Positions 22,221-43,000 of a DNA stretch of 48,705 nt are shown one piece after another. How positions within the stretch are numbered: the stretch's first letter is position 1; the number at the start of each line of letters is the position of its first letter. The DNA comes from Candidatus Saccharimonadota bacterium (GTDB lineage Bacteria; Patescibacteriota; Saccharimonadia; Saccharimonadales; 2-12-FULL-41-12). Below the pieces are notes generated by a model. It was given only the letters and a program-made list of their open reading frames with translations, made no database searches and had not been told where the DNA came from. Position numbers and translations under genes: made by a program. The stretch is from NCBI GenBank assembly GCA_043741255.1, contig JAYUAP010000094.1, positions 1 through 48,705 on the forward strand, in the 5' to 3' direction.

Positions 22221-24164
22221 CTACAGCCCAAAACCTCTCTCAAATAAAGGCTTAGTGCCATCTCGCGTACTACCATTCGCATTTGTAGGTACTTGTTGCA
22301 TGTTCAATGGCCATGTTATGGGTAGTCTAGCTTTGAATTGACTAAGTCCAAATAAAACATCAGCAACACCGCCGCCTTCACTACCGGGGAGCCAGGCAGC
22401 TACTACCGCATCCCAGGACGATATCTGATCAGTAATAATAAGTGGTCGTCCAGATAGAATAATCACAATAACCTTTTCAGACGATTTTTTTAGATTTTCT
22501 ATTGCCTGAATATCCTTTGTATCTATACTTGGATTCGCATTGTCTCCCCAACCTTCTGCGTATGGTTTCTCGCTGACAACAGCAATACCTACATCGGCTT
22601 TTTTATTATCAAGCTTAAAATTACCATCTATTTCGTAGTTAATCTGAACACCATCGCTCACTACCTGTCGTATACCTTGCAGAATCGATGTTCCTCCTGG
22701 CATCCAATTTCCATCTACACCTTGCCATTCGACGGTCCACGCACCACATTGTCTACCCACATTATCGGCACCGCTACCCGACACAAGAATTTGGTCAGTA
22801 TTTTCTGGTAACGGCAGTAGAGAGTTTTCATTTTTTAGTAACACTGCAGACGAAGCTACAATTTTACGGGCAAGTTTGTGGTGTTTTTCAGAACCTACAG
22901 TATCCAGACTAATATTGTTCAAGGATACATCAAATAAGCCAGCTTTAAATTTTTGATACAGAATACGACTGACCGCATCATCGATTCGTGCCTGACTAAT
23001 TTCGTCATTGTTTACAGCCTTACGCACGTCACCCAGGAATGTTTTGTAGTCGTATGGCAGCATGGCCATATCCAGGCCCGCATTTATAGTTTTTACATTT
23101 GCTTTATACTTGCTTGTCTTGGAGTATTCATAAACCCCATACCAATCCGAAACAACAAAACCCTTAAAACCTAATTCGGTTTTCAGCTTATCGGTTACCA
23201 AATATTTGCTATCAATAATACGTTCATCGCCCCATTGGTTCAGACCTATCAATACAGAGGCAACGTCTGCTTCAATAACTTTTTTGTATGGCGGAAGGTA
23301 CTCGTTTATTAGTGCTTGGTTATCGGCTTTAGTTTTTCCTTGGTCAATTTTGAATTTTTTATGATTTGATTTTCCCCATTCCATGGCACCAGTAGCCAGA
23401 TAATGCTTTGCCGATGCAAGTACGTACGTTTTGTCGTCGAGAGATGCCTGAGTACCTGCAACATATGCTCTTCCCAGTTCGCCATTTAGAGTAGGATTAT
23501 CAGAAAAAGCCTCGTAAACTCTACCCCAGCGCATGTCTTTAGGCGCATCAAGTGAAGGTGAGTAATTCCAATTTATTCCGGTCGCCTTCAACTCTTCGCT
23601 TGTAGCAATTGCTACCTCATTTACTAGCTTAGTATCTTGGGTTGCGCCCAATCCTATGGCGTGTGGGAAAACCGTTGCTCCCAATACATTAGAATGGCCG
23701 TGATTAGCATCAGTTCCGTACAGAATCGGTATCCCAAGCCTTGATTTCAGCGCTTGATCCTTCATGCCATTAACCATATCCTTCCAGCCTTGTGCCGTAT
23801 TAGTCTTTGGTTTGGCGCCGGCACCGCTCAGCACACCACCTAAGTAGTATTTGCTAATGTCGTCCACCTTTCTAAGGCTATTCTTATCGACCAAAGCCAT
23901 TTGACCAATTTTTTCCTCTAAAGTCATACGAGACACCAAGTCTCGCACCCTGATTTCTATGGGTTGGTCTACTTGCCTGTACAGAGCATCTGCAGGCGGT
24001 GGCGGTAATTGTATCCCCAAATCCTCCGGTTGAAGCAAGTAAGTAACAAAACTAACAATTGAGACCACAAATATAACAAAAACAATCCAGCGGTTACGAT
24101 GGGTATTAATTTTGTTTAAAATAGTTTTTTTATCTTTACGGTGAGTTTTTTTTCGATTAGCCAT
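22221..24164 (-). CDS. glycoside hydrolase family 3 (BglX-like beta-glucosidase/exo-glycosidase), membrane-anchored
   Basis: GH3 N- and C-terminal domains, with the nucleophile context GFVVSDW. I prefer the MANRKK start at 24164, which lies 7 nt downstream of TGcTATAAT (24172-24180 on the minus strand). The N-terminus has a basic stretch followed by a TM anchor. Confidence 0.9.
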   Translation of the reverse strand: MANRKKTHRKDKKTILNKINTHRNRWIVFVIFVVSIVSFVTYLLQPEDLGIQLPPPPADALYRQVDQPIEIRVRDLVSRMTLEEKIGQMALVDKNSLRKVDDISKYYLGGVLSGAGAKPKTNTAQGWKDMVNGMKDQALKSRLGIPILYGTDANHGHSNVLGATVFPHAIGLGATQDTKLVNEVAIATSEELKATGINWNYSPSLDAPKDMRWGRVYEAFSDNPTLNGELGRAYVAGTQASLDDKTYVLASAKHYLATGAMEWGKSNHKKFKIDQGKTKADNQALINEYLPPYKKVIEADVASVLIGLNQWGDERIIDSKYLVTDKLKTELGFKGFVVSDWYGVYEYSKTSKYKANVKTINAGLDMAMLPYDYKTFLGDVRKAVNNDEISQARIDDAVSRILYQKFKAGLFDVSLNNISLDTVGSEKHHKLARKIVASSAVLLKNENSLLPLPENTDQILVSGSGADNVGRQCGAWTVEWQGVDGNWMPGGTSILQGIRQVVSDGVQINYEIDGNFKLDNKKADVGIAVVSEKPYAEGWGDNANPSIDTKDIQAIENLKKSSEKVIVIILSGRPLIITDQISSWDAVVAAWLPGSEGGGVADVLFGLSQFKARLPITWPLNMQQVPTNANGSTRDGTKPLFERGFGL

Positions 24165-24182
24165 TAGTATAATTATAGCAAA

Positions 24183-24210
24183 AAAACACCTTAAAACGGA
24201 GGTGTTTAAC
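24183..24210 (-). terminator. rho-independent terminator (minus strand) between module A and the GH3 promoter
   Basis: On the minus strand: AACACCT-CCGTTTTA-AGGTGTT followed by TTTTTG. Confidence 0.45.
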
Positions 24211-24219
24211 ATAAGCTTA

Positions 24220-24362
24220 TTGGAGGGCCAGGAGGGACTCGCCTCACAGCCAAGAAATATACTTTTGCTAATGCGACCTCAACTCACTTTGTTCGTTCTG
24301 AGGCAAGGTGCGGGGACTGCAGACTTGCAGTCCCGTTCGAGTCCCGACTAATCTTCAGCCAA
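24220..24362. repeat. tRNA-3'-end-derived imperfect palindromic module A
   Basis: The left arm TTGGAGGGCCAGGAGGGACTCG is the reverse complement of a T-arm/acceptor/CCA-like end. Central hairpin GGGACTGC-AGACTT-GCAGTCCC at 24313-24334. The right arm contains the T-loop-like GTTCGAGTC. An A-run, an imperfect hairpin and a T-run follow at 24363-24398. Confidence 0.6.
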
Positions 24363-24398
24363 GAAAAAAAGCACTATCTTTACAGACAGAGCCTTTTT

Positions 24399-24432
24399 AT
24401 TGGAGGGACGTATGTATCGCTGTTACAACTGA
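24399..24432 (+). repeat. conserved ~31-nt block (TGGAGGGACGTATGT...CAACTRA), copy 1
   Basis: TTGGAGGGACGTATGTATCGCTGTTACAACTGA, compared with 26535-26566 ATGGAGGGACGTATGTTTGGTTGTTGCAACTAA. It can be read as GGAGGG + 5 nt + a 6-codon ORF (MYRCYN / MFGCCN). Confidence 0.5.
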
Positions 24433-24529
24433 ATTATTGGATCACCCTAGACCGTTTGTGACCGTATTATCAACTAATTAATATAGGCTCCAAACGAGCA
24501 TGGAAGTAGACATGGTTACATTTTATAAC

Positions 24530-24580
24530 GCTTATGGTTACATAATGTATCTGTTAAGGAAGGCTTATGGTTACATAATG
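24530..24580 (+). promoter_or_regulatory. direct repeats (putative operator) overlapping the Fic promoter
   Basis: GCTTATGGTTACATAATG occurs at 24530-24547 and 24563-24580, with a partial third copy ATGGTTACAT at 24512-24521. The repeats start 22 and 33 nt apart. The second full repeat covers the -35 position of the TGgTACAAT (24591-24599) extended -10, which lies 6 nt upstream of the Fic ATG. Confidence 0.55.
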
Positions 24581-24605
24581 AAACTTGAGATGGTACAATT
24601 GAGAC

Positions 24606-25754
24606 ATGTTATCCATACCTGAACCATCGTTTAAATCTAGTCTAACAGATCTTATAGTTGAACTCGAAGGGCTCCGCAATAAAGACGTCACTGGGACAGC
24701 TAAGCCTTGGGTTTTCTTCGAACTTAAGAACCTCTTCCATATTGTCGAGGCATTGAGCTCTGCCCGTATCGAAGGTAACCACACTACTCTGGCTGACTTT
24801 GTTGATTCTCAGCTGAGTTTAAATTTACAGAACGAAGAGTTGGTAGAGATTAGCAACATAATTAAGGCTTTGGACTTTATTGATAAACACATTGCTGATC
24901 ACAAGATCGATAAGGCTTTCATCCTTGAACTACATAAAATAGTCGTAAATAGCTTAAGCCCCAACAAAGAAGGCGACAAAAGATCCGGTGCATATCGTAA
25001 CGAACCACGTAAAATAGCCAACTCATCACATGTATTGCCTCAACCGAGCGATATTAACGACCTAATGAATGAACTAATCCAGTTTATTGACGCAAAAAAC
25101 GAGCCGAAACATGACCTACTTAAAGTAGCTATAGCTCACCATAGGTTTGTATGGATTCATCCGTTTGGCAATGGTAATGGTCGTGTCGTTCGTCTGCTCA
25201 CGTACGCCATGCTGCGCAAACAGGGTTTCATAACTACAGGACTCACTCGATTATTCAACCCTGCGGCGGTATTCTCGGGTGACCGTCAGAAGTATTACGA
25301 TATGCTCGAAGAAGCCGATAAAGGTTCTAATGAAAATATCCTTACGTGGTCTGAGTATGTACTTTCAGGACTTAAGGATGAGGTTAAAAAATCACAAAAA
25401 CTTGCTGATGCCGGATTCGTACGTAATGAAATACTTATGCCGACACTTGATTGGGCACTTGAAAAGAATGTTTTGAGCGAACTAGAGGTACAAGTGTTAC
25501 GACGAGTAATCCGAAAGGAGTCTGTTAAAGCCGCTGATGTTCGCGACCTATGGCCTGAAAATCGTTCACACGTTGTGGTATCAAAGTTCTTTAGCAAACT
25601 CCGTAAGCAAAACTTTATCCGCCCACTGAAGGAAAATGGCCGAGAGTATGTACTGTGCTTTACTGGCAATAAGCTGACGCGTGGTATTCTGGAGCAAATG
25701 GAAAAGCAGGGCATGTTGCCGATCCAAGTCGATGAACTAGCGAACAAGAAATAG
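24606..25754 (+). CDS. Fic family protein (AMPylase-type), with N-terminal auto-inhibitory motif and C-terminal wHTH-like extension
   Basis: Fic active-site motif HPFGNGNGRVVR. A Fic_N-type SxxxEG inhibitory motif (SARIEG) lies in the same polypeptide. Confidence 0.9.
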   Translation: MLSIPEPSFKSSLTDLIVELEGLRNKDVTGTAKPWVFFELKNLFHIVEALSSARIEGNHTTLADFVDSQLSLNLQNEELVEISNIIKALDFIDKHIADHKIDKAFILELHKIVVNSLSPNKEGDKRSGAYRNEPRKIANSSHVLPQPSDINDLMNELIQFIDAKNEPKHDLLKVAIAHHRFVWIHPFGNGNGRVVRLLTYAMLRKQGFITTGLTRLFNPAAVFSGDRQKYYDMLEEADKGSNENILTWSEYVLSGLKDEVKKSQKLADAGFVRNEILMPTLDWALEKNVLSELEVQVLRRVIRKESVKAADVRDLWPENRSHVVVSKFFSKLRKQNFIRPLKENGREYVLCFTGNKLTRGILEQMEKQGMLPIQVDELANKK

Positions 25755-25911
25755 AGTATAGCTTACCTGAAATACTTTGTGAAACTCAAGTATTAGCCAA
25801 TTATATAAAAAACATAGGCAGTTTACCCCTGTTTTAAGCATAAGCATCTTGGAGGAGCAAGGTGCAAACTATTGCAACTAGACTGCTGGAAAAGCCTTTT
25901 ATAGCTTCTAC

Positions 25912-26259
25912 CTAAGTTCTAGTGAATTTTTCATCCGCTTCTTTTACCAGCTCTTTAATCTCAGACCATTTTTTGCGTACTTCTTCTTCGCTTCCAGCAG
26001 CATGGTGGTCTGGCAATTCTAAAGTGCCAAACTCTCCACCAATTTGGTCAAGTAAATCATCTTGCTCAAGGTTTTTATATTTAAGCCATGCACCTGCTAT
26101 GTGATATGCAATGCCTTGTCGCTTATCCCAGTCAGTATCAATTAATTCCGTTGCCAGTAAGCATAAATTTACAAATTCTCTCTCGGAAATAGATTCTTTT
26201 GCAAAAAGAGCTTTTGAGCGTTCTTCAAACTCGGGCGGTACTGAAAAATCTTCTTTCAT
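25912..26259 (-). CDS. hypothetical acidic protein (115 aa), convergent with Fic
   Basis: ORF preceded on the minus strand by the terminator-like hairpin AGAGCC-GTCAAT-GGCTCT-TTTTT (26274-26297). No motif. Confidence 0.45.
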   Translation of the reverse strand: MKEDFSVPPEFEERSKALFAKESISEREFVNLCLLATELIDTDWDKRQGIAYHIAGAWLKYKNLEQDDLLDQIGGEFGTLELPDHHAAGSEEEVRKKWSEIKELVKEADEKFTRT

Positions 26260-26337
26260 AAAATAATCATATCAAAAAAGAGCCATTGACGGCTCTTAGG
26301 TTCAGACTTTCCCACTAGGGTCATCTGTAAGGTCAAA

Positions 26338-26501
26338 TTGGAGGGTCCAGTGGGACTCGGTCACCTTTGGCGACCCCCGAACTTCTGCCATGCAAACAAG
26401 TTTGCAGGTGAAGATTCGTTTCCGAACTGCCACAGGCAGTTCTCACCCACGACACCCTCTTGGTGTGTCGTGGCTTCAAGCCTTACTGAGAACTTGCCAT
26501 G
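26338..26501. repeat. tRNA-3'-end-derived imperfect palindromic module B
   Basis: Left arm TTGGAGGGTCCAGTGGGACTCGG. Hairpins at 26391-26406, 26424-26442 (GAACTGCC-ACA-GGCAGTTC) and 26446-26472. The right arm contains GGCTTCAAGCC...ACTGAGAAC. Confidence 0.6.
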
Positions 26502-26532
26502 AAAAAAGCCGACCGCAAGGGTCGGCACTTTT
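26502..26532. terminator. bidirectional rho-independent terminator
   Basis: AAAAAA-GCCGACC-GCAAG-GGTCGGC-ACTTTT. On the minus strand it follows the 26588-26944 gene. Confidence 0.7.
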
Positions 26533-26534
26533 CA

Positions 26535-26566
26535 TGGAGGGACGTATGTTTGGTTGTTGCAACTAA
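26535..26566 (+). repeat. conserved ~31-nt block, copy 2
   Basis: See 24399-24432. A more degenerate third copy, TTGGAGGAGC...TTGCAACTAG, lies at 25849-25881. Confidence 0.5.
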
Positions 26567-26587
26567 GTCATTAAGAACGCACGAAAA

Positions 26588-26944
26588 CTATCTAGTAATC
26601 TTCTTGCTTTGAGTAATCGCAATTAGAAATGTAAAGATTATGATGCCTATTGTAAATGCAGTCATTAGTTGTCTCGCGGTGTTATCGAAGTCAGTGACTT
26701 CTCTTACACAATGATCAGCACAATCAATATGTCCCAGAATAGATCCAAACCACAAGAGAGCCGTTGAAATCCATGATAAGACTACGAGAAAGTAAGCAAC
26801 TACACTTATTTTTAGTTTATTGAAGAAAATTACCAAAGAAACGGTAGTGAGTAGGGGTGCAAAAATAGGGCTTATATTACTAATTGTAACCAAGGATATA
26901 ATGATTGATAGTACTAACCATGCAAAAGAAAGACGCTTGTTCAT
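26588..26944 (-). CDS. integral membrane protein (hypothetical, 3-4 TM)
   Basis: 118-aa hydrophobic ORF containing a CADHC motif. No family recognised. Confidence 0.5.
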   Translation of the reverse strand: MNKRLSFAWLVLSIIISLVTISNISPIFAPLLTTVSLVIFFNKLKISVVAYFLVVLSWISTALLWFGSILGHIDCADHCVREVTDFDNTARQLMTAFTIGIIIFTFLIAITQSKKITR

Positions 26945-27009
26945 TGGTTATGACATACTTTTACACATAATTCTATTTAATAGTAACATGAAGGAGAAGC
27001 ATAAGTGTA

Positions 27010-27142
27010 TTGGAGGGCTCAGCGAGGCTCGTCATATCTACTCTCACTTCAGCTAAAGCTGCGTTCGAGGACAAGCAAGGAAAACTCAATTGCCATAGGC
27101 AATTTTCAACTGTCGTTCGATTCTCACTGAGCAACGACCAAT
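27010..27142. repeat. tRNA-3'-end-derived imperfect palindromic module C
   Basis: 27009-27031 is 21/23 identical to the tRNA-Lys 3' end at 27172-27194. Central hairpin AATTGCC-ATA-GGCAATT at 27088-27104. The right arm GTCGTTCGATTCTCACTGAGCAACGACCAAT is an inverted, T-loop-containing tRNA-end-like sequence. Confidence 0.65.
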
Positions 27143-27144
27143 TC

Positions 27145-27166
27145 AAAAAGTCCCACAAGGGGACTT
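27145..27166 (-). terminator. rho-independent terminator after tRNA-Lys
   Basis: On the minus strand: AAGTCCC-CTTGT-GGGACTT followed by TTTTGAATT, starting 8 nt after the encoded CCA. Confidence 0.65.
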
Positions 27167-27173
27167 CATGAAT

Positions 27174-27249
27174 TGGAGGGCCCACCGAGGCTCGAACTCG
27201 GGACACGCGGCTTAAAAGGCCGCTGCTCTACCAACTGAGCTATGGGCCC
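27174..27249 (-). tRNA. tRNA-Lys (anticodon UUU), CCA encoded
   Basis: Reverse complement GGGCCCATAGCTCAGTTGGTAGAGCAGCGGCCTTTTAAGCCGCGTGTCCCGAGTTCGAGCCTCGGTGGGCCCTCCA. It folds as a 7-bp acceptor stem, a D arm GCTC/GAGC, an anticodon stem GCGGC/GCCGC with loop CTTTTAA, and a T arm CCGAG-TTCGAGC-CTCGG. Total length 76 nt. Confidence 0.95.
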
Positions 27250-27361
27250 GCATTTAGCGGGAACCTATCGGTTATTTTCATTTTAACAGATTAAATTTGC
27301 TAAAATCAACTAATGATATTATACATGCTTTATGGCAAAAGTCAATCTGTTGACCCTTAGT

Positions 27362-28054
27362 TTAAACAGTGACGTGGACTAGGATTGGGGCATGGTCAGA
27401 AAGTTTGCTTTTAGGTAGGGCAAAAATTCGCTCAATCTGGGCATTCATGCTGGTGGCCACGTCTAAACGGCAACGGAAATATTTGTTCATGTAGTAGGTA
27501 GGACGGTCACTAAGAGTTAGTTCGTAACCACTTTTTTCTATACAGACACGCAGACCACGTTTGAAAAGCAAGTAGTTATAATCACCAACCATGATTGCTG
27601 GACTATCTGGACTATTTTGGGCCAATAATTTATGAGCGCCTCGGATTTGCTCGCGCCTTAAGTAGTTTGTAGCCACGTGGTGAGTAGCGTGGAAAGTGCC
27701 AAGGTTAAGTTCTTGGCCAGATTTACGGTCATGAATTTTTGTGATTAGCAGGCGTTCCATCTGGGGCATGTAGATTTTTTCTAGTAATGAATTTTTGAGC
27801 ACGTGACTAGATGAATCCGTGACAAAAAATCGCTTTTTACGATGATAAATCGCTAGATTAAACTTACCTGTCAGAGTTTTCTCTGACAAAACTAAATCGC
27901 CAATTTCATCTGGAAGTTTCTCAGAATGACATTCCTGGATGCACAAAATATCGGCTTCATAGGTGTTTACCAGTTCTTCTAGATCTTCGATAGCACGATG
28001 ATATTTGAGGTTGTAACTAATAATTTTTATGTTGTTAAGCTTTTTGTTTTTCAT
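27362..28054 (-). CDS. endonuclease/exonuclease/phosphatase (EEP) family protein
   Basis: EEP motifs ADILCIQE, GDYN and the C-terminal SDHAPI. Confidence 0.8.
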   Translation of the reverse strand: MKNKKLNNIKIISYNLKYHRAIEDLEELVNTYEADILCIQECHSEKLPDEIGDLVLSEKTLTGKFNLAIYHRKKRFFVTDSSSHVLKNSLLEKIYMPQMERLLITKIHDRKSGQELNLGTFHATHHVATNYLRREQIRGAHKLLAQNSPDSPAIMVGDYNYLLFKRGLRVCIEKSGYELTLSDRPTYYMNKYFRCRLDVATSMNAQIERIFALPKSKLSDHAPILVHVTV

Positions 28055-28893: not shown

Positions 28894-29528
28894 GACTTTA
28901 TTTATCGTCAGAAAATGTCGGGAACTACTCAGATCAACTCCTAGAAATGGTCGGCGACAATAAAACTGTTGCATATATAGGAAATGCTAAAGATGATTGG
29001 GATAATAGCGAAAAATCAGCCAAAGTAGCTGAGCATAAAGCCTTATTTGAAGCATTGGGCTTTAATTTTACGGAATTTGACCTAAAAAATTACTTTGGTG
29101 CTCAAAAAATAACCAAAGAGGATTTAGTTGGATTTGGACTTGTTTGGTGCTCGGGCGGTAATACGTTTTTACTAAGAAGAGCTTTGGCTGATAGCGGGCT
29201 AGACCAAGTTTTAGTTAAAATGCTAAAAAATAATGAGATTGTTTACGGAGGTTCTAGCGCTGGTTCAATTATCCCAACGCCGTCGTTAAAAGGCGCAGAA
29301 TTTAGTGATGACCCTGGCCAGGTCGAAAAAATTTACAAAAAAGAGATTATTTGGGAAGGCTTAAATTTAGTGCCTTTTCATATAGTCCCACACTATAAAA
29401 CTGATTGGTTTAGAGATGACACAGAGAAGATGATTAGCTACCTGAAAGATAATTCCCATAACTTTACAGCACTAAAAGACGGACAAGTTGTTTTGGTATA
29501 CAGTGAAAGGCACGAAACACTGCTGTGA
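28890..29528 (+). CDS. peptidase S51 (dipeptidase E-like) family protein
   Basis: GTG start overlapping the yebC stop. Motifs SGGNTF and GGSSAGS (nucleophile-serine context). Confidence 0.7.
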   Translation: MRLYLSSENVGNYSDQLLEMVGDNKTVAYIGNAKDDWDNSEKSAKVAEHKALFEALGFNFTEFDLKNYFGAQKITKEDLVGFGLVWCSGGNTFLLRRALADSGLDQVLVKMLKNNEIVYGGSSAGSIIPTPSLKGAEFSDDPGQVEKIYKKEIIWEGLNLVPFHIVPHYKTDWFRDDTEKMISYLKDNSHNFTALKDGQVVLVYSERHETLL

Positions 29529-30001
29529 GAATTTTAGGCATAGACCCAGGTACTGGAATTTTGGGATTTGGTGTTATAGAGTCGGGGGTTCGTAACAAAA
29601 CCAGCCTGGTTGACGCTGGGGTTATTAGGACGCCAGCAAAACAAGCAGACCAGATTAGACTTTTGACAATTTATGATGAGTTAAATGAACTAATCAAAGA
29701 GTTAAAGCCACAAGTTATGTCGGTAGAAAAGCTATTTTTTGCCCAGAACGTCACTACTGCAATGACCGTATCGCAGGCTAGGGGAGTGGTAATTTTGTGT
29801 GGCATGAAAGCCGGCCTAGATATATTTGAATATACTCCACTTCAGATAAAACAAGCATTGACCGGCTACGGGAGAGCTGACAAAAAACAGATACAGGAAA
29901 TGGTGAGAGTAATATTGGGTCTGAAGGAAGTACCTAAGCCGGATGATTGCGCAGATGCACTGGCGGCTGCTATTTGTCACAGTATGACAAATATGGTATA
30001 A
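29525..30001 (+). CDS. ruvC: crossover junction endodeoxyribonuclease RuvC
   Basis: GTG start overlapping the upstream stop. Motifs ILGIDPG, EK.F and the C-terminal DA.DALA.A. Confidence 0.92.
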   Translation: MRILGIDPGTGILGFGVIESGVRNKTSLVDAGVIRTPAKQADQIRLLTIYDELNELIKELKPQVMSVEKLFFAQNVTTAMTVSQARGVVILCGMKAGLDIFEYTPLQIKQALTGYGRADKKQIQEMVRVILGLKEVPKPDDCADALAAAICHSMTNMV

Positions 30002-30009
30002 TCTGACTA

Positions 30010-30753
30010 ATGAGTAAAGAAATAGACCCCCGAAGTGGGTCAATCGTACCATACTTAACTATTCCAAAGTTTATTGTTAACTATTTGGATGAAGTAAAGG
30101 TTGAAGGCGAATTTAAGGAAAATCCCAAAATTCTCCAGAATGATTATTTGCGTCTTTGCAATATTAATCCTGATAATCCTGAGCAAGAAGAGCATTATGC
30201 CAATGGCGATAGCGTAACGGGCTCTATATTGGAAACAATTCGGACCAAAAATGTTAACGAATCGACGGACATAGCTCGTGATAGTTATTTTAAAAGCGAA
30301 ACTTATAAAAGTGGTGGTTCAAGGAAGCTGATTAATGGCGTTGGGCGTATAGCCAATATGGCTTTTATGAAAAATGCTTTGTTTATTAGTTCAGCGGTAG
30401 AGCTTAACAGGCATGTAACCGAGTCCCCAGAACCGAAAAAGCTCAAAGAATCAGATAAAAGTTCGATTCTAATACACGCCAAGGCAAAGAGTGAATGCTA
30501 TTTAAGATACAAAAACTCAAATGAATTTTTGTTCCAGGCTTTAAAGTTTCATGGCAGGGCTGAAGCTGGCGCATTGGCTGGAGTTTTGCATGGTCCAGAA
30601 TATCCAAAGACCAGTCGTCAGTTGTTGCAAGACCAAATAGAATTCCGAAGCGTTCTTGACAAAAATTTCGCACTTTCTGCATATGTTTTATTCCGTTCTG
30701 CAGAATTAAAATATAATCCAAGTTTTTTGCCAGATTTTCCACCTTCAGAGTAA
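30010..30753 (+). CDS. hypothetical protein (247 aa) inserted between ruvC and ruvA
   Basis: Long clean ORF starting 9 nt after ruvC. No motif recognised. Confidence 0.5.
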   Translation: MSKEIDPRSGSIVPYLTIPKFIVNYLDEVKVEGEFKENPKILQNDYLRLCNINPDNPEQEEHYANGDSVTGSILETIRTKNVNESTDIARDSYFKSETYKSGGSRKLINGVGRIANMAFMKNALFISSAVELNRHVTESPEPKKLKESDKSSILIHAKAKSECYLRYKNSNEFLFQALKFHGRAEAGALAGVLHGPEYPKTSRQLLQDQIEFRSVLDKNFALSAYVLFRSAELKYNPSFLPDFPPSE

Positions 30754-30781
30754 CTAGTACTTTCTGATGTATAATTAGTTG

Positions 30782-31363
30782 GTGATAAATTATCTTGATG
30801 GGGAAATTGCGTCAAAAGATATTGACTATGTAATTGTTGATATTGCTGGCGTTGGTTACGGGGTGCGAGTTTCTGTTAGTGACTACGACAACCTAAAAAT
30901 CGGCGAGCGTAATAAACTATATATTTATGAGCATATTCGTGAGGATGCTCATGATTTATTTGGGTTTATAAATATTGGTACACTAAATTTATTTAACCAA
31001 CTTCTCAGCGTAAAAAATGTTGGACCTAAAGTTGCACTAGCAATTTTAAGCATCGGGTCAGAAAGCACAATCCGTGAGGCAATAGCTGGTGGCGATGTAA
31101 AACGACTGCAAACAGCAAAGGGCGTGGGTAAGCGCGCAGCCGAACAAATAATTGTGGAACTACGTGACAAGCTAGGACTAGTAAGTTCTATGGAGGCTGA
31201 AGGTGTAGTAACTCGAGGTAGTTTGGACGTCAACGATGAAGCTGTACAAGCATTGGTGGCCCTAGGCTATAGCGAATATGACGCCCAATCGGCACTTAAA
31301 AAATCAGACCCAGAACTATCTACGCAGGAGCGAATCAAGCAAGCTTTGAAGGGTAATTTTTAG
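30782..31363 (+). CDS. ruvA: Holliday junction DNA helicase subunit RuvA
   Basis: (M)INYLDGEI, followed by the HhH motifs (L..V.GVGPK.A..IL, V.GVGKR.AE.I..EL). The start is TTG 30779 or GTG 30782. TATAAT at 30770-30775 lies immediately upstream. Confidence 0.9.
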
Positions 31364-31365
31364 AG

Positions 31366-32400
31366 ATGGCGGTCGAAAGAATCGTTCAACCAGATTTACC
31401 TCCCGAAGATTCGGTTGAGCAAGAGTTGGAAGTAAGCCTTAGGCCTAAAGATTTTACAAATTATATTGGTCAGCAAAGGCTGAAAAATGCACTACTGCTA
31501 GCAATTGCTGCTGCCAAAAAGCGCGGTGAGCCGATAGACCACGTTTTGCTTTATGGCCCCCCGGGACTTGGTAAAACCACTATGGCTAGTGTGATTGCTC
31601 ACGAGATGAACTCTAATATCCGGATAACTTCCGGACCGGCAATAGAAAGGGCGGGGGATTTAGCCAGTATTTTAACTAATCTTCAAGACGGCGATATTTT
31701 GTTTATTGATGAAATTCACAGACTTCATCGTAGTGTTGAAGAAGTGCTTTATAGCGCTATGGAAGATTTTAAGCTGGATATTATGCTGGGTAAGGGGCCG
31801 AGTGCCCGGAGTCTGCGCCTGGATTTACCTAAGTTTACAATTATCGGAGCTACTACCAGGACAGGTGCATTGGCTGCCCCGTTGCGCGACAGGTTTGGCA
31901 TACAGCACAGGCTAGAATTTTATACAGACGATGAAATCGCCCAGATTATCAGGCGGACAGCATCAATTTTGAATGTTGGCATTAACGAAAAAGCATCTAG
32001 AGAACTAGCGAAACGTTCACGTTTGACACCCAGAATTGCCAACAGATTATTGAAAAGAGTCCGTGATTACGCCGACGTTAATAGTGACGGAATAATTGAT
32101 GAAAACATTACTCATAAAACCATGAAGTTACTTGAGATTGATGAAGTGGGGTTAGACCCAGCAGACCGCCGAATACTAGAAACTATCATAGAGCATCATA
32201 ACGGTGGACCAGTCGGGGTTGATACACTAGCGGCTATAACTGGTGATGAGCGCACAACTATTGAAGATTTTTTTGAGCCATATTTAATGCAAATAGGCAT
32301 GCTGGAACGCACACCACGAGGCAGGAAAGTAACACATAAAGCTTACGAACACTTGGACAAAAAACCAAAAGACAAAGCAGACCAGACTAAATTGGTATAA
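31366..32400 (+). CDS. ruvB: Holliday junction DNA helicase RuvB
   Basis: Walker [10 protein letters not shown], Walker B LFIDEIHR, and the TTR sensor region. Confidence 0.97.
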
Positions 32401-33055: not shown

Positions 33056-33364
33056 TTATTCCTTGAAGGGGTCTTTCCTGGCTGACTCAAATAGTGACTG
33101 TACGACGACGTTCTGGTCTTCTAGATTTTCAATTTTATCAATAGATTGCTGGTCTATTTTTAGTCTTTTTATAGCACTGATTTGAGTGTTGACTTCTTCT
33201 GATGGTTCGTTTTGTGAGGCTGAGCTAACGTTCAGTATTAAGAATCCATATAAGCCAAAAATAAGAATAAAAGTAATAAGCAACAAACATTTTGATATTT
33301 TTTTTCCGTACTTTTTGAGCCTGAGTAATATTTGTTTGATATCTAGGTTTGATTCTTTTTTCAT
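33056..33364 (-). CDS. small single-pass protein, last gene of the pilMNO unit (hypothetical)
   Basis: ATGA overlap with the upstream pilO-like gene. One TM segment. No motif. Confidence 0.4.
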   Translation of the reverse strand: MKKESNLDIKQILLRLKKYGKKISKCLLLITFILIFGLYGFLILNVSSASQNEPSEEVNTQISAIKRLKIDQQSIDKIENLEDQNVVVQSLFESARKDPFKE

Positions 33365-33993
33365 GGCTTTACATACGCATTCAAAGTTAATGTAAACGTT
33401 ATTGCACCACCACCACTTAGCGGTTTAATTGATATTTTATCAACATGTGCCGTACGACGGTTATTCTCAAGTTTTTCTAGGAATTTAATAAAGTCGGAAT
33501 AAGTTGTTGGCTGAGTTTCTTGGCTAATTATCATTAATTCTAAGGCGTAAACTCCAGATATGCCGTCAATTGTCTTTACTTGACTGATTGGAGGAGTAGC
33601 TGGAGTGTTGGCAGAATCTGAACCTTCTGTTGATGTTGTGGCTTTAGGCACCACTTGGCCTAAATTGGAAGTTTGGAACCTGATATCTTTGATAGCTATG
33701 CCACTTTCAGTTGCTAATTTTGAAATTTCACGAACCGTTTTAGCTTGGTCTTTGTCTTGCGGAACGATAGATTTCGCAATTGAATTTAGCTCGGTATATT
33801 TTTCTATATCTTTTTTGGCTTGCACAAGAGAAATCTGTTGTTGATCTATTAACCTAGCTTCAGTTTTAACTTCTTGAAGTTTTTTAGCTTGAGCGTCTAT
33901 CAAGCCATTACCCCAGAAAACCACACCAACTACTAATATGGCGGTAAGTATATTGAGGCCAATCATTACGAAATAAAATCGTTTGGTCGTCAT
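33361..33993 (-). CDS. pilO: PilO-like type IV pilus assembly protein
   Basis: I prefer the MTTKRF start at 33993, which shares an ATGA overlap with the pilN stop. The architecture is TM, coiled coil, then a C-terminal domain, in the position after pilN. Confidence 0.55.
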   Translation of the reverse strand: MTTKRFYFVMIGLNILTAILVVGVVFWGNGLIDAQAKKLQEVKTEARLIDQQQISLVQAKKDIEKYTELNSIAKSIVPQDKDQAKTVREISKLATESGIAIKDIRFQTSNLGQVVPKATTSTEGSDSANTPATPPISQVKTIDGISGVYALELMIISQETQPTTYSDFIKFLEKLENNRRTAHVDKISIKPLSGGGAITFTLTLNAYVKP

Positions 33994-34589
33994 TGTTTTA
34001 CTCCGCTTACACTGGGCGAAATGTAAAGATATGGATTGTCTTTGGTGAACAAGGCCCTGAGTTGAACGATGCACGGGTAATTTCTAGATACTGTCGGGTC
34101 GCAGGATATACTCTCGATGTCAGCTTTTTCAAATATTTTATTTTTTGGATCTTGAAGGTTAAGTTGTACCTGAGTTGCCGAGTCAATGTCCTTCGCTTGG
34201 GCGATTATTGTAATACCACCTTGAATTTTATCTATCTGAAGTTGCTGTAGGGCTGTATTTGCCGGCAAGGCTGCGCCAAGCTGGTTTAGAAGCTTAGAAA
34301 ATAGTATTTCTCTAGAAAGAACTTGGGTTGTAAGCTTTACATTATTGGATATAGTATCTATCTCTTTTTGCGTTCCTTCAATATTTTGTGCTTGAAGAGA
34401 TTGGCGAGACTCAATAGTTTTTTGTTCTATGGATTTTGTTGTTTGAGATAGGTAAAATAATCCGACTACAACAATCAAAACGGCGCCAAAAAGAGCAAAA
34501 ATTAGGTAGGTTAACCATTTTCTTAGAGTGCTGTTTTTACGGGCGTAGAGCATATCGTTGCGTGTTTCAAAGGGGAGTAAGTTTATCAT
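33990..34589 (-). CDS. pilN: type IV pilus assembly protein PilN
   Basis: The N-terminus MINLLPFE (INLLP motif that binds PilM), a single TM, and the position after pilM. Confidence 0.75.
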   Translation of the reverse strand: MINLLPFETRNDMLYARKNSTLRKWLTYLIFALFGAVLIVVVGLFYLSQTTKSIEQKTIESRQSLQAQNIEGTQKEIDTISNNVKLTTQVLSREILFSKLLNQLGAALPANTALQQLQIDKIQGGITIIAQAKDIDSATQVQLNLQDPKNKIFEKADIESISCDPTVSRNYPCIVQLRALFTKDNPYLYISPSVSGVKQ

Positions 34590-35653
34590 GATATAAATAG
34601 CTCCCTTGGGTTAATCAAGGATAATCCAGCAACCGTTACGTAAATAGATTTTTCTAGACTGCTTGGCGGACGTAGTTTATGTAAGTCAAAATTACGTAGT
34701 GGTTCGCAAGTTCGGACGGGAAGACGTATCTGATTAGTCAAATAATCGCTTAAGCCTGGCATGTTAGCCCCGCCACCCATCGTTATGACTTGGCCAATTT
34801 TTGCCTTGGCACCAGATCGTTCTTCATGATAACGAATCATACGTTGGATTTCTTTAGCCAGTTGATCGACCGTTGGTTGAAGCGTACTTAAAATTTGGTC
34901 TTGTTTTTTGCTTTTACCGATTCCGTATTTGGTCTTGATTATGTGAGCTTCTTCTGTGGAGACCCCCAAAATTTTACTAATATTTTCAGTAAAAATGTCT
35001 CCTCCGCCTAAAATAGTTCCCGTGACAATAACTGTTTTGTCATAGATGGTTATATCTGTAGAAACAGAGCCAAAATCTACAAGAACTGCCGGAATGTCAT
35101 TATGGTCATCTTGTTTCTCAAACAGCCTAGCAGCAGCTAAAATGCTTGTGTCAAAACCAACAGGTTCCAAACCTAAAATGTGGGCTAAACGTATATGGGA
35201 GTCAACAATTTTTCTAGGAGTCGCGACAGCCAAAACTTCTAGGCCTTTTTCGGTTCTGCCGATTATGGAATGGTCCAGGTACAGATCATCGAGTGGAATT
35301 GGGATGTACTGTTCAGCCTCTATCCTAACAGCGTCAGGGATTTCATCGTCTTTTATTGATGGAAGTTCAATAGTACGCGTGTATGTTTTGGAAGCAGGTA
35401 CAGACAACGCAACACGCTTAGTATTAATTTCGCCGACTATATTTTCTTTAAATAAATGCATGATTGATTCGGCTAAAGTTTTATACTTTGTAACTACGCC
35501 TTCTTCTATAGCGCTGGAATCAAAGGCCCCCACGCCATAACCAATAACCGAAAAACCTTTATTTTGAGGTTGAGTTTGCATGACCTTGATGGTGCTAAAC
35601 CCAATATCTAGACCGAACAAAGGTTTGTCGTGATAAAAATATTTAGAGTTCAT
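34586..35653 (-). CDS. pilM: type IV pilus assembly ATPase-like protein PilM
   Basis: Actin-like fold motifs (FGLDIG.S.IKV, VDFGS..TD, MGGGA). Confidence 0.9.
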   Translation of the reverse strand: MNSKYFYHDKPLFGLDIGFSTIKVMQTQPQNKGFSVIGYGVGAFDSSAIEEGVVTKYKTLAESIMHLFKENIVGEINTKRVALSVPASKTYTRTIELPSIKDDEIPDAVRIEAEQYIPIPLDDLYLDHSIIGRTEKGLEVLAVATPRKIVDSHIRLAHILGLEPVGFDTSILAAARLFEKQDDHNDIPAVLVDFGSVSTDITIYDKTVIVTGTILGGGDIFTENISKILGVSTEEAHIIKTKYGIGKSKKQDQILSTLQPTVDQLAKEIQRMIRYHEERSGAKAKIGQVITMGGGANMPGLSDYLTNQIRLPVRTCEPLRNFDLHKLRPPSSLEKSIYVTVAGLSLINPRELFIS

Positions 35654-35727
35654 TTTTGTGATAGCCCACCGAATTTCTTATGCTTATAGTATACCACCGA
35701 AGTTTAAAATTATTATGAAAAGTATTG

Positions 35728-37092
35728 CTAAAAAGCTCTTCTGTAACCATTGAGTATCCAGTAGGATGTGCCTATTCCGGCGGAAGTACCAAAGGTGATG
35801 GTTGCTGTGTTTCTAAGGTGTACAGTTTGGCCGATAAGTGCACCAATTTGGCCACTGTTAAAAACTTGCACTTTAGACCACTTAGCATAAAATATGGTAC
35901 CTGAGCCAGCGCCAGTATTGTTTAGATTAATCGTTACTAAGTCTCGAGAATTTTTTAGATCTATACCCGTAACATCTGCACAGTCTGGAGAACAGCCAGC
36001 AGAACTATAGTAAGCTACAAGCCGAAGTCCAGTACCGCTGGCATTGTTTTGAACTGAAGATGAGTTTTGTAATGAGACTAATGTACCATCAACCATTAAG
36101 TCTGGTCGTGTTGAGTTAAGAGAGTTTGAGATAGTTATTTTGCCTGCTTGTGTGAAAGTTAATGTCCCAGTAATCCAGGCATTGCCGTTCATAGTTACGT
36201 TGCAGGTTTTAGAAATTGTGACATTACCCGTAATCTTGACATTTGCTGGCCAAGTCACGCTACCGCCGTTGCTTGTACATGATGCGGTGGCACCCGTTAA
36301 GTTATTTGTGACTGTTGCTTTTTGGGTAGCTCTATCATGTGTAGGTAAGGGCAAAGTTGGCACCCCGCTACCGCTTATTAGTCCGGGGTTTGTAAGTCCT
36401 GTGGTTGTCACTTGATTGTTAGCTGACACAGACCCATAAATATGCGCACTGTTGCTAATACTAATCGGCTCGCCATTTTCTCCACTATTGCAAAGTCTGG
36501 GGTATGTAGCATTGGCTGGGTTTGGGCATGCCTGGTGTGCTACTTTGAGGCTAACAGGTGTTGCTAGCAGACCAATCTGAGACGTATTACTCATAGTTAC
36601 GGTTCCATTTACATAAACATCGCCTCCCAAAACCTTAGAAGAATTGTCCATAATTAGTCCTCCAACACCAGTCACAATACTAAAGTTGCCACTTGTTACC
36701 TTTCTGAGGTCGGCGTTGATTGTTATGGATGACTGTGGAGTGGCAGAGCTCGCAGGTCTGTATAACTTAGCGGTCGAAGTCATGACTTTTTTGTCTGAAT
36801 TTACATCGCTAACTACGACACTATATGTTGTTTTGACATTATTGAGAGTATCAAAAACCACAGTACCGCCAGTGCCTGCCCAAGCAGTATTAGCAGTAAT
36901 TTGTTGCATACCATAGTCTATCGCAGCATCGGCCACCATTTGCGTCTCAGTTCTAAACGTATCTTTAAGGGACAAAACAACATTATTTGTGCTAAGTCGT
37001 GTGTAGTTAAGTGCAATAATAATTAAAAACGGTAAAACAATTATGACCGAAATTAGAGCGGCGCCTTTTTGAGAGCGAGTAATATTTTTCAT
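35728..37092 (-). CDS. large PilX_N-type pilus-associated protein (putative minor pilin or tip-associated factor), S/T/N/G-rich
   Basis: The N-terminus QKGAALISVIIVLPFLIIIAL resembles the PilX N-terminal domain. It sits directly after two prepilin-type genes, with a 1-nt overlap. Confidence 0.5.
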   Translation of the reverse strand: MKNITRSQKGAALISVIIVLPFLIIIALNYTRLSTNNVVLSLKDTFRTETQMVADAAIDYGMQQITANTAWAGTGGTVVFDTLNNVKTTYSVVVSDVNSDKKVMTSTAKLYRPASSATPQSSITINADLRKVTSGNFSIVTGVGGLIMDNSSKVLGGDVYVNGTVTMSNTSQIGLLATPVSLKVAHQACPNPANATYPRLCNSGENGEPISISNSAHIYGSVSANNQVTTTGLTNPGLISGSGVPTLPLPTHDRATQKATVTNNLTGATASCTSNGGSVTWPANVKITGNVTISKTCNVTMNGNAWITGTLTFTQAGKITISNSLNSTRPDLMVDGTLVSLQNSSSVQNNASGTGLRLVAYYSSAGCSPDCADVTGIDLKNSRDLVTINLNNTGAGSGTIFYAKWSKVQVFNSGQIGALIGQTVHLRNTATITFGTSAGIGTSYWILNGYRRAF

Positions 37093-37772
37093 TAAAATGT
37101 GTTCCTTAAAGTTGTTCTAATACTTGTATCCAGGGTTAGCGGTGCACCGAAGGTATCTGCCTGCATAGTAAGGTTTATGACTACAGAACGAGCAATAACA
37201 GGGTTGTTAGTTGAAGCGTTATCTTGGTCGTAAAGTACGAAAACCATAGATTGGACATTTTCTGCCAGCTTAATATCCGCAGGACAGCTACTAGTTGCAG
37301 ATGCTGGCGGGCATGAAGTTTTTAGTTTATTCCCAACAGCAGTCGGATTGGCCAAAGTTCGTTTATACATTGTTTTACCATTTTTGTAATAAACCAACTC
37401 ATTCAAGTATGGCTGGTTAGTAAAGGGATCAATTATATACTGTTCAGAACTGTCTATGGCTGGCACGGCTGTAATAATTACAAACGAGGTATTATTGGTA
37501 TTCCAGCCACCAACTGGTGCGTTGGCGTCCGAAATAGTGTTAGTCTGTCTAACGCCAGCACCATATCTTAGTTCTTCGGTCACTGTTCTTAGCAAGCCTT
37601 GAGCATCAACACTCATAGAGATGTCCACACTATTTCGGGTTAGTAAAACAAAATAGTTAGTAAAAACTGTAAGAATTGACACCATTATAATCGCAAGTAT
37701 GGTAATGCTAAGATTAATTTCTACTAACGTAAAACCTTTTTGATTTGGCTTAACTTTAGTATTGACCAACAC
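37092..37772 (-). CDS. prepilin-type N-terminal cleavage/methylation domain protein (minor pilin, PilW-like)
   Basis: KGFTLVE followed by a hydrophobic helix. Confidence 0.7.
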   Translation of the reverse strand: MLVNTKVKPNQKGFTLVEINLSITILAIIMVSILTVFTNYFVLLTRNSVDISMSVDAQGLLRTVTEELRYGAGVRQTNTISDANAPVGGWNTNNTSFVIITAVPAIDSSEQYIIDPFTNQPYLNELVYYKNGKTMYKRTLANPTAVGNKLKTSCPPASATSSCPADIKLAENVQSMVFVLYDQDNASTNNPVIARSVVINLTMQADTFGAPLTLDTSIRTTLRNTF

Positions 37773-38175
37773 CCAGCTCCCCTATGTAGGTTTTATAAGT
37801 CTGGCTTTGTGTTTTCCCTTGTGCGTTGTATGACAGAGTAACTACAACCAACTTAAGACCTGCGCTAACATCGCTTATTACTTCAGAACCAGAGCGAGGA
37901 GATTTTAACTCAGCCGGCATCTGGCTGGTAATATCTGTAGTGCCATTCGTAATAGTTAGGTAGCCTTTACTTCTAAGTTCTTCGATTTTATTTTCGGCAA
38001 AAGAATTAACAATGGTTAAATCGCGTCCGCGCTGAGCTAAGTGAGAATTATTGTTAGTCACAATGCTTAAACTGCCAATCAAAACAACAGATACCATAAT
38101 AGTCACCAGTAATTCTACAAGTGTAAAACCATCATCATCAATAGACTTTATGGCAGAAATATTTATTATTCTCAT
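37756..38175 (-). CDS. prepilin-type N-terminal cleavage/methylation domain protein (minor pilin, PilV/GspH-like)
   Basis: DGFTLVELLVTIMV after an unusually long 15-aa leader. Confidence 0.7.
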   Translation of the reverse strand: MRIINISAIKSIDDDGFTLVELLVTIMVSVVLIGSLSIVTNNNSHLAQRGRDLTIVNSFAENKIEELRSKGYLTITNGTTDITSQMPAELKSPRSGSEVISDVSAGLKLVVVTLSYNAQGKTQSQTYKTYIGELGVGQY

Positions 38176-38226
38176 GCTTATAAATTAGTATATCACTGAC
38201 GTAATTAATGTTTTTAATAAAAACTT

Positions 38227-38252
38227 AAAACCCTCAAAATTTTGAGGGTTTT
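38227..38252. terminator. rho-independent terminator after pilA (palindromic, bidirectional)
   Basis: AAAACCCTCAAA-ATTT-TGAGGGTTTT, about 20 nt downstream of the pilA stop. Confidence 0.7.
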
Positions 38253-38272
38253 AAGTTTACTAAATCTAATTT

Positions 38273-38716: not shown

Positions 38717-38827
38717 AAGGACCCACCCTCCTTAAGTTATTTTTATAGTATTATGACCCCTAAGATTTTATATTGCTTAGGTATCTAGCAATGATTATTA
38801 AGCATTACCTTTATTTGGTCAAGCGTT

Positions 38828-40045: not shown

Positions 40046-40058
40046 ATTTATTTATGAT

Positions 40059-42990: not shown

Positions 42991-43000
42991 GAGTAAAGGT

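Follow-up and report, generated by a model that had tools for sequence, protein, structure and literature searches.

What kind of element strings single genes behind one tRNA gene, each set off from the next by a copy of that tRNA's last bases? The question is raised by contig JAYUAP010000094.1 (assembly GCA_043741255.1) of a Candidatus Saccharimonadota bacterium, analyzed here over 48,705 nucleotides (nt), hereafter the window. The locus is a tRNA-Lys-anchored, strain-variable array, widespread in Saccharibacteria, whose units are bounded exactly by CCCTCCA-ended sites that fall into two conserved classes. Its cargo is diverse and comes as single genes, and its modules are structured and tRNA-like. 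By a modest measure, we favor an origin through serial site-specific insertion of small, horizontally acquired units at the 3′ CCA of tRNA-Lys, carried out by an enzyme encoded elsewhere.

An array of tRNA ends behind tRNA-Lys

The sequence CCCTCCA (27174-27180) forms the last 7 nt of the tRNA-Lys(UUU) gene and serves both as anchor and as insertion point. The heptamer TGGAGGR occurs on the plus strand at 24221, 24401, 25850, 26339, 26535, 27011, and 27174. These are seven of the 12 matches in the window, and the remaining five fall outside the array. Only 0.20 copies would be expected in 2,960 nt of one strand (Poisson P(≥7) = 2.4e−9, or 8e−8 once corrected for windows), and the biggest cluster across 500 first-order Markov simulations held at most five copies. 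The density, which the initial annotation of this DNA had asked to have checked, is thus far above expectation. That annotation had also recognized an intact minus-strand tRNA-Lys(UUU) at 27174-27249, listed the six further copies, and described the nearest (27009-27031) as identical to the tRNA at 21/23 positions before diverging in the T-loop. ARAGORN and Rfam agree on the tRNA, all six copies were recovered exactly, and the sequence of 27009-27031 bears out both the 21/23 match to the tRNA-Lys 3′ end and the divergence that begins in the T-loop.

Read along the tRNA (minus strand), the order is tRNA-Lys, module C, a cassette for a 118-amino-acid (aa) protein, module B, a 115-aa cassette, a reversed Fic cassette, module A, the native tRNA trailer with its terminator, and a GH3 gene. 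The features are listed below, with the two classes of end site named T1 and T2 and open reading frames abbreviated to ORFs.

27318-27345, minus strand: promoter-like site TTGACT-16-TATAAT, 5′ of tRNA-Lys (consensus scan, 11/12 matches; a pattern match only)
27174-27249, minus strand: tRNA-Lys(UUU) with encoded CCA (ARAGORN, tRNA-Lys(ttt); Rfam tRNA, 69.2 bits)
27011-27173, minus strand: module C, 163 nt (fold z −5.15; T1 end)
26535-27010, minus strand: 118-aa cassette, predicted membrane ORF at 26588-26944 (ORF list, T2 pattern, presence/absence polymorphism)
26339-26534, minus strand: module B, 196 nt, B-type family (fold z −5.43; T1 end; covariation in alignments)
25850-26338, minus strand: 115-aa cassette, acidic ORF at 25912-26259 (ORF list, T2 pattern, leader, terminator scan)
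24401-25849: Fic cassette, gene on the plus strand at 24606-25754, reversed relative to the tRNA (Pfam Fic, 2.5e−20)
24221-24400, minus strand: module A, 180 nt (fold z −3.99; T1 end)
24184-24220, minus strand: native tRNA trailer and terminator ATAAGCTTATGTTAAACACCTCCGTTTTAAGGTGTTTTTTT, of the leader (ii) type (terminator scan), followed by the GH3 gene

The alternation of modules with one-gene segments had been seen in the initial annotation and stands. Its module size of 130-170 nt does not, as modules A, B, and C measure 180, 196, and 163 nt with their leading hairpins.

Two classes of end site

The heptamers had been treated as copies of a single tRNA-end repeat. This holds for the four T1 sites (24221, 26339, 27011, and 27174), whereas the three T2 sites (24401, 25850, and 26535) form a separate, conserved 30-nt class. 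T1 reads CGAGYCYC...CCCTCCA, a 17-21-nt copy of the tRNA T-loop, T-stem, and acceptor 3′ strand plus CCA, and it closes the tRNA and all three window modules. T2 closes all three gene cassettes. Its pattern in the window is AGTTGYAAY-N14-YCCTCCA and in general AGTTGCAAY-N14-CCCTCCA, with the consensus TAGTTGCAAYAG..TC.AC..TGGCCCTCCA from 71 unique sites. Across 1.2 Mb of species loci, T2 matches sit, with a single exception, 3′ of tRNA-Lys, or of a truncated one, in the same orientation. The exception (L087) is off consensus and probably spurious. We also considered the 5′ box of T2 as a remnant of a tRNA D-arm, and rejected this because the alignment score was reached by 296 of 1000 shuffles.

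The end of module C (27011-27031, CGAGCCTCGCTGAGCCCTCCA) has two mismatches to the resident tRNA end. Module B ends (26339-26359) in CGAGTCCCACTGGACCCTCCA, which differs from this genome's tRNA-Lys and is identical to the tRNA-Lys ends of L033 and L095 (GAGTCCCACTGGACCC). The end of module A (24221-24241, CGAGTCCCTCCTGGCCCTCCA) equals the tRNA-Lys 3′ end of species L036 (GTCCCTCCTGGCCC). The tRNA-Lys ends of other species on modules B and A point to a foreign origin. Elsewhere, module 3′ ends agree with the resident tRNA over 21 nt in seven species and over the last 17-18 nt in the others. Five B-type modules in L226 and L184 are only 68-78% identical in their bodies, yet their last 19 nt match at 19/19 positions both mutually and to the resident tRNA. 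The module end is therefore homogenized or selected.

Cassettes and modules are each built to a plan. A cassette opens with a tRNA-trailer-like leader and a terminator, holds a single ORF that in most cases runs with the tRNA, and closes with the 30-nt T2 end. The 118-aa cassette ends in the T2 site AGTTGCAACAACCAAACATACGTCCCTCCA (26535-26564). The 115-aa cassette has leader (i), ATTTGACCTTACAGATGACCC..., a terminator at 26278-26297, and a T2 site at 25850-25879 that recurs identically in L026 and L085. The Fic cassette, followed in the tRNA direction, starts with a leader (ii)-like trailer (25815-25849) and finishes with its T2 site (24401-24430). A module opens with a hairpin that pairs with the preceding CTCCA, continues into a structured body that covaries, and closes with a T1 end copying a tRNA-Lys 3′ end. 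Each window module opens with a GC hairpin and a T-run, its stem extending to pair with the preceding CCAA. In module C, the hairpin and T-run (about 27138-27173) pair with the preceding CCAAT and lead into the structured body. Module B has a terminator (26508-26526), then a three-hairpin body; module A has a hairpin with T-run, then its own structured body.

Across 115 unique joints the left side is conserved and the right side is not, save for a frequent A. Three classes recur on the right: the leader ATTTGACCTTACAGATGACCC...; the leader RYTTATGYTTAAA with a CAGAGG hairpin, which is also the native tRNA trailer of empty sites; and module-type hairpins. The first bases of these hairpins covary with the bases before TGG, so the stem always takes in the preceding CTCCA. 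A crossover in the T-loop, as the initial annotation proposed, does not agree with the joints, which lie at the CCA end, directly after CCCTCCA. The T-loop crossover model was rejected on this ground and because, in the window, the copy that borders the flank is a foreign one.

Gain and loss among strains

Related contigs were gathered by exact-protein look-ups from several samples and assemblies, with flanks 98-99.9% identical to the window. They show units gained or lost beside tRNA-Lys with boundaries exactly at the repeats, which is the cross-genome comparison that the initial annotation had called for. L005 is an empty site, in which the tRNA CCCTCCA is joined straight to ATAAGCTTATG... 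and the GH3 gene, without window positions 24228-27173. Here the native trailer, of a type conserved across species, is contiguous with the tRNA CCA. In L010 the tRNA is followed by module A. In L006 and L007, from independent samples, the tRNA is followed by module B and the 115-aa gene, and the 639 base pairs (bp) of module C and the 118-aa cassette are missing. L001, L003, and L004 have the full array order. All of these joints fall exactly after CCCTCCA, and the joined partners share just 7-11 nt.

The three shorter alleles are nested suffixes of the window array, each anchored at the tRNA. If deletion ends were drawn at random among the eight sites, the tRNA site would be involved in only 7/28 pairs. 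Further contigs end at repeat sites (L008-L010, L015, and L243) and scaffold L002 has an N gap there, as population heterogeneity at these sites would produce. Contig L243 breaks at both ends of the Fic segment, along with module A. A second, independent lineage, anchored on tRNA-Lys(CUU), has the same kind of pair: in L230 the tRNA is joined to the flank, and in L148 a 1.08-kb cassette with a T2 site lies between the tRNA and the same flank.

Direct repeats of the tRNA 3′ part therefore bound the inserts, the tRNA stays intact, and empty and occupied alleles coexist, as in a tRNA island. An invariant locus, an absence of polymorphism at the boundaries, and a repeat density at expectation were among the outcomes that the initial annotation had set down as fatal to its proposal, and the data contradict all three.

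Distribution and cargo in Saccharibacteria

The host belongs to Saccharibacteria/Saccharimonadales, and the neighboring YebC gene retrieves 80 species loci at 68-84% identity. Of these, 56 have tRNA-Lys with downstream sequence: a module directly follows the tRNA in 14/56, T2 sites are present in 9/56, and one or the other is found in 20/56. A T2 pattern scan of metagenomes added at least 120 loci, a set that mixes chance single hits with true arrays. Among the matches listed, the true arrays are anchored on tRNA-Lys(UUU) or tRNA-Lys(CUU), and the 80 species loci and 120 metagenome loci make up the 200 related loci referred to below.

The pooled total is at least 43 arrays and at least 76 units. 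Among the matches listed, 14 of the 76 units have the size of a module (163-259 nt) and 62 that of a gene (318-2806 nt, median ~640 nt); the largest ORF runs with the tRNA in 55 units and against it in seven; and only three pairs of homologs are shared between loci, so the cargo is very diverse. Again among the matches listed, the cargo of the largest units comprises an APH-type phosphotransferase, a PIN toxin, an LD-carboxypeptidase, SDR epimerases, an amino-acid kinase, and a DUF488 protein. In L080, five consecutive single-gene cassettes code for a HAD hydrolase, a NUDIX protein, and several membrane proteins, among others, and a glyoxalase-type gene is the first past the last T2 site. In L226, a B-type module and a small-gene cassette alternate three times.

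In the window itself, the 118-aa and 115-aa proteins have no Pfam match and no PADLOC match. The 115-aa protein has 19 homologs at 62-97% identity. In all six loci examined the homolog lies just 3′ of tRNA-Lys(UUU), either first or second in order, with decayed modules beside it in some. One of these, on a 495-kb NCBI Saccharibacteria contig (L234), lies between decayed modules at 4886-5000 and 5367-5480 whose T1 ends lack CCCTCCA, and the arrangement looks like a fossilized array.

The Fic protein matches the PADLOC SoFic model nearly over its full length (2.7e−46). Just upstream of the gene, at 24512-24585, are four direct repeats of ATGGTTACAT, two longer copies of which read CTTATGGTTACATAATG. 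These may be an operator or autoregulatory site.

Module A ends in a 9-nt unit, CCCTCCTGG, that is present as one copy plus core in the window and as 4-5 copies in some strains (L001, L003, and L243). The expansion lies ~3810-3870 nt past the start of the EEP gene in L001 and L003 and at the contig start in L243; scaffold L002 has an N gap at this place. The expansion points to local slippage or to repeated events at the core.

Several neighboring genes deserve mention. The mechanically called GH3 ORF (22221-24212, 663 aa) overruns the terminator of the tRNA trailer; in gene-caller predictions it begins at 24164, past a TATAAT box, and encodes 647 aa. RuvC/A/B lie at 29525-32400, and a type IV pilus/competence-like cluster (PilM-like, pilins, T2SSF, and T2SSE) lies beside RecA and RecX at 33056-44289. 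From this gene content, the organism looks equipped for natural transformation. Two guanylate-kinase-family paralogs (6716-7435 and 8210-8926) sit ~0.8 kb apart with an AhpC/TSA peroxiredoxin gene between them.

Folded modules and their likeness to E. coli repeats

Modules A, B, and C can be aligned with one another and all fold well on the minus strand (z −4.0, −5.4, and −5.2). A consensus fold was built from 14 B-type modules. Compensatory changes occur at 25/41 of its pairs, against 5-10 with the partners slid, and 96.3% of cells are paired, against 34-48%; none of 500 shuffles reaches the observed values. The fold has an acceptor-like 4-bp helix, a T-stem, an NCCA end, and three conserved hairpins in place of the T-loop. 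The module T-stem covaries with the T-stem of the species' own tRNA (pairs 60:169 and 61:168). The T-arm region of the tRNA recurs as an inverted copy in the 5′ part of the module, so that the whole reads direct-inverted-direct. The initial annotation had considered attachment-site (att) remnants as one of two readings. The modules are more than scars of this kind: they belong to conserved, covarying, structured families that follow tRNA-Lys in many species.

The 14-sequence alignment has 30 GT wobbles and 3 AC mismatches, an excess that favors the tRNA-sense strand as the one that folds, whether in RNA or in DNA form; an 8-sequence alignment did not settle the strand. Watson-Crick pairs account for 520 of the 571 module pairs. 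A coding role was rejected. The peptide 'NCHRQFS' shared by modules derives from a conserved hairpin, and changes from species to species compensate each other, so the modules are not coding. Searching the window and region against Rfam at E ≤ 10 returned tRNA only, with SorX (E = 1) and CrcZ (E = 6.9) far under their gathering scores.

The closest match to the module build is in E. coli. At the tyrT/tyrV locus of NC_000913 (L233, 1286709-1287382) there are three 178-bp repeats, each ending in AATCCTTCCCCCACCACCA, which is the final 19 nt of tRNA-Tyr with its CCA. The annotation names the first of them as the small RNA RttR. The 19-nt tRNA-Tyr end occurs a fourth time between tyrT and tyrV, and on the opposite strand an annotated ORF, ychS, overlaps the distal repeats. 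The tyrT operon has been described as the source of the rtT RNA (bioRxiv 10.1101/2024.07.17.603846). Both systems consist of non-coding units 3′ of a tRNA, in the same orientation and in tandem, that end in 17-21 nt of the tRNA including CCA, and in both a structured insert interrupts the T-arm within the T-loop. The module architecture thus has a known precedent. However, the E. coli repeats share no sequence or Rfam homology with the Saccharibacteria modules, and they are near-identical, whereas the modules form several diverged families, some with foreign tRNA ends, that alternate with cassettes. To our knowledge, the E. coli repeats have no interleaved gene cassettes, T2-type sites, or strain-level cassette turnover. 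The initial annotation had recognized no described system with this layout. For the modules this no longer stands. For the layout as a whole, full-text literature searches turned up no account of such a locus from Saccharibacteria or Patescibacteria.

By analogy with rtT, the modules may be expressed as tRNA-like RNAs. Might this be their main function? On such an account, the modules are small RNAs trimmed from read-through transcripts by tRNA-processing enzymes, the repeats are a by-product of module duplication, and the cassettes are incidental. The account is compatible with serial insertion. It draws on the covariation that backs an acceptor/T-stem minihelix ending in NCCA with three hairpins for the T-loop, on the wobble excess (30 against 3) toward the tRNA-sense strand, and on a position, orientation, and split T-arm like those of rtT. 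Against this, a strong terminator precedes each module and a promoter is not evident, there is no Rfam match even at E ≤ 10, and the near-complete Watson-Crick pairing (520/571) would also fit a DNA hairpin. The T2 sites, the gain and loss of cassettes, and the foreign tRNA ends are left unexplained. We consider it rather unlikely that the modules are primarily functional RNAs of this kind.

Search for an enzyme or parent element

Pfam annotation of essentially all window ORFs found no site-specific recombinase or transposase, only RecA, RecX, and RuvABC, in agreement with the initial annotation, which had seen no recombinase in the window. The search extended up to 8-10 kb around the arrays, with four probes and with Pfam on a subset of ORFs. 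TBLASTN with XerD, IntI1, gamma-delta resolvase, and IS608 TnpA probes gave no hit in the window or in the 200 related loci (80 from species, 120 from metagenomes), among the matches listed. Pfam found no recombinase in the largest units (among the matches listed), clustering of the proteins that neighbor the arrays returned housekeeping families only, and no Y1 HUH transposase or TnpB was found in the window or related loci. No circular contigs were present among the metagenome hits listed. Pattern scans of IMG/VR for a parent phage or plasmid gave chance hits in coding regions or nothing, and in the GenBank phages and PLSDB the tRNA was matched but nothing else of the array. The joining enzyme would therefore be unlinked to the array.

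An EEP-family protein of 230 aa (27362-28054, weak Pfam hit) is encoded directly upstream of tRNA-Lys. As a candidate joining enzyme this nuclease was rejected, because it is present in only 5/80 species loci, three of which (the closest relatives) have no module or T2 cassette. A dif/Xer site was likewise rejected, as the resemblance is to a half-site only and the spacing is wrong. The sequence TTATGTTAAA in the native trailer and in one leader class resembles what we take to be the XerD arm of E. coli dif, but its ATAA/TTAT halves are 2 bp apart. No skew switch marking a replication terminus was found at the locus.

Comparison with known mobile systems

Integrons and CALINs (clusters of attC sites lacking integron-integrases) hold co-oriented, diverse single ORFs, each with a recombination-type site. 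New cassettes enter at the head, at a primary site, and CALINs have no integrase. The array shares the single co-oriented diverse ORFs, the end site after each, the head site, the structured imperfect palindromes, and the lack of a linked integrase. The conserved pairing of the module palindromes resembles attC only by analogy. No intI was found beside the primary site (window Pfam, and TBLASTN with IntI1 and XerD in the 200 loci, among the matches listed), and no attC R″/L″-L′/R′ boxes with a GTTRRRY core were found at T1 or T2 sites. Unlike integrons, there is no attI, the core is the CCCTCCA of a tRNA end, the start of the cassette is unconserved, and the anchor is a tRNA gene; the cassettes also bring their own terminator and promoter-like leader. 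The initial annotation had offered an integron-like array served by a recombinase encoded elsewhere. The co-oriented, diverse single ORFs without a linked integrase support the first half of that suggestion; the recombinase itself is postulated.

The insertion sequences (ISs) of the IS200/IS605 family, and palindrome-associated transposable elements (PATEs), insert 3′ of a short specific sequence without target duplication, excise precisely so that the target is restored, and have hairpins near their ends. Insertion directly 3′ of CCCTCCA and strand-asymmetric conservation are alike here. Modules and many cassettes have a hairpin at the left end; at the right end, one precedes T1 but none is evident before T2. 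The units differ from IS200/IS605 elements in these T2 ends without an evident hairpin and in carrying ordinary cargo genes.

Integrative mobile elements exploiting Xer (IMEX), such as CTXphi, and the pdif modules of Acinetobacter plasmids are small, lack a recombinase of their own, use a host enzyme, and stack at one site, and a folded single-stranded attP is known from CTXphi. Unlike these, the array has no 28-bp dif-like site with two 11-bp arms and a 6-bp spacer.

In tycheposon islands, partial tRNA copies lie between stacked elements and older ones are pushed outward (bioRxiv 10.1101/2020.12.28.424599). The Prochlorococcus tycheposons and the array are both seeded at a tRNA 3′ end, vary in presence within populations, and occur in streamlined hosts poor in classical mobile elements. 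Tycheposons carry tyrosine recombinases and replication modules and span kb to tens of kb, whereas the units here span 0.2-2.8 kb and have at most one ORF. Among the matches listed, we saw no integrase or integrase fragment in the units, and the end sites here include the specialized 30-nt T2 site. We file the locus with three known kinds: tRNA-seeded islands, integron-like arrays, and tRNA-linked repeats.

How the array may be built

We lean toward serial, site-specific insertion at the CCA of tRNA-Lys as the explanation. Newcomer units would enter at the tRNA-proximal site and displace older units outward. Each unit ends in a new CCCTCCA, so the insertion site is regenerated every time. The site-specific reaction would be run in trans by an enzyme encoded elsewhere in the genome. 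A single-strand-type reaction, like that of integron IntI on attC or the 'peel and paste' of IS200/IS605, is suggested by the conservation of the left half-site alone, the hairpin after each joint, and the wobbles favoring the tRNA-sense strand. Its substrate may be DNA acquired through natural transformation.

Several points weigh against this explanation. No recombinase, transposase, or circular intermediate was found and the catalytic step is wholly inferred. The negative search covered four probe proteins, Pfam on a subset of ORFs, and a reach of at most 8-10 kb around the arrays. The polymorphism comes entirely from metagenome assemblies with several contigs ending inside the array, some of which may be mis-joined. 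Deletion between 7-11-bp direct repeats, instead of insertion, could yield the same alleles. The terminator before each module and the lack of an evident promoter fit neither an RNA nor a DNA-site reading cleanly. Some relatives have decayed, apparently fixed copies (L234), and part of the pattern may be vertical inheritance.

A more specific form of serial insertion is possible, and we put it forward tentatively: an undescribed gene-capture platform of Saccharibacteria, analogous to the integron but built from a tRNA, with the CCA as primary site, T2-tagged cassettes, folded tRNA-like modules whose ends are maintained as exact matches to that of the resident tRNA, and an unlinked enzyme. The enzyme is possibly of a new type or single-strand-specific, and it may act on transformation DNA. 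In a bolder variant, drawn by analogy with bridge and omega RNAs, the module would be a scaffold plus guide RNA whose direct and inverted target copies steer the reaction to the resident tRNA end.

Could the array instead be the debris of larger elements? Phages, integrative and conjugative elements (ICEs), or tycheposon-like elements might have integrated serially in tRNA-Lys with their own integrases and then decayed, leaving the repeats as att scars and the genes as leftover cargo. Adjacent partial tRNA copies, tandem stacking, and outward pushing are known for tycheposon islands (bioRxiv 10.1101/2020.12.28.424599), T1 sites are tRNA 3′-end copies, two of them from other species, and one T2 variant has a T-loop-like box, AGTTCGAAAT. 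However, no integrase gene or fragment was found in the 43 arrays, the 76 units, or their surroundings, among the matches listed. The units are tiny (median ~640 nt) with one ORF, co-oriented at 55:7, T2 is conserved and specialized rather than a decaying tRNA copy, and the joints lie at the CCA end rather than at a T-loop crossover. A viral, phage, or plasmid counterpart was not found in IMG/VR, the GenBank phages, or PLSDB. Decayed elements are an improbable source of the array.

We give equally little credence to an origin without any dedicated enzyme. Here, natural transformation and RecA would act on the conserved tRNA, modules, and leaders in the style of a 'minimal mobile element', with slippage or microhomology deletion at CCCTCCA. 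The window does encode type IV pilus/competence-like genes, RecA, RecX, and RuvABC, the variable genes are flanked by conserved modules and leaders, and slippage is clear at module A, where CCCTCCTGG is expanded. But only 7-11 nt are shared at the joints (tRNA ...GGGCCCTCCA and T2 ...ACGTCCCTCCA), which is too short for RecA. All three alleles pair the tRNA site with exact CCCTCCA ends, modules of one array are only 63-78% identical, and the conservation of T2 together with the 19/19 T1 ends implies selection on the end sites.

A chance or compositional cluster of heptamers is already refuted: GGAGG is a common, Shine-Dalgarno (SD)-like motif and two plus-strand T2 copies read as SD plus ATG mini-ORFs (MYRCYN and MFGCCN), but the mini-ORFs were rejected as they are absent from the other 70 T2 sites, P is ~2e−9, no simulation reached the observed cluster, and the 20-30 nt flanking the heptamers are kept across species.

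Implications for Saccharibacteria

Saccharibacteria and other members of the Candidate Phyla Radiation (CPR) have tiny genomes with few recognizable mobile elements and live as epibionts, and small surface, defense, and resistance genes probably decide their host range. The array addresses a standing question, how accessory genes are acquired and turned over in CPR genomes. If serial insertion is correct, a single-gene capture hotspot at one tRNA, present in about a third of the sampled species and variable among near-identical strains, would be a main route of gene flux. Its cargo includes the SoFic-like defense gene, an APH-type phosphotransferase, a PIN toxin, and NUDIX and glyoxalase-family proteins. 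The locus would also give genetic tools a natural site for precise insertion, in a group whose genetics has just become possible. Lastly, the long unexplained tRNA-linked repeats of E. coli would be tied to a larger dynamic system, and their origin may become testable.

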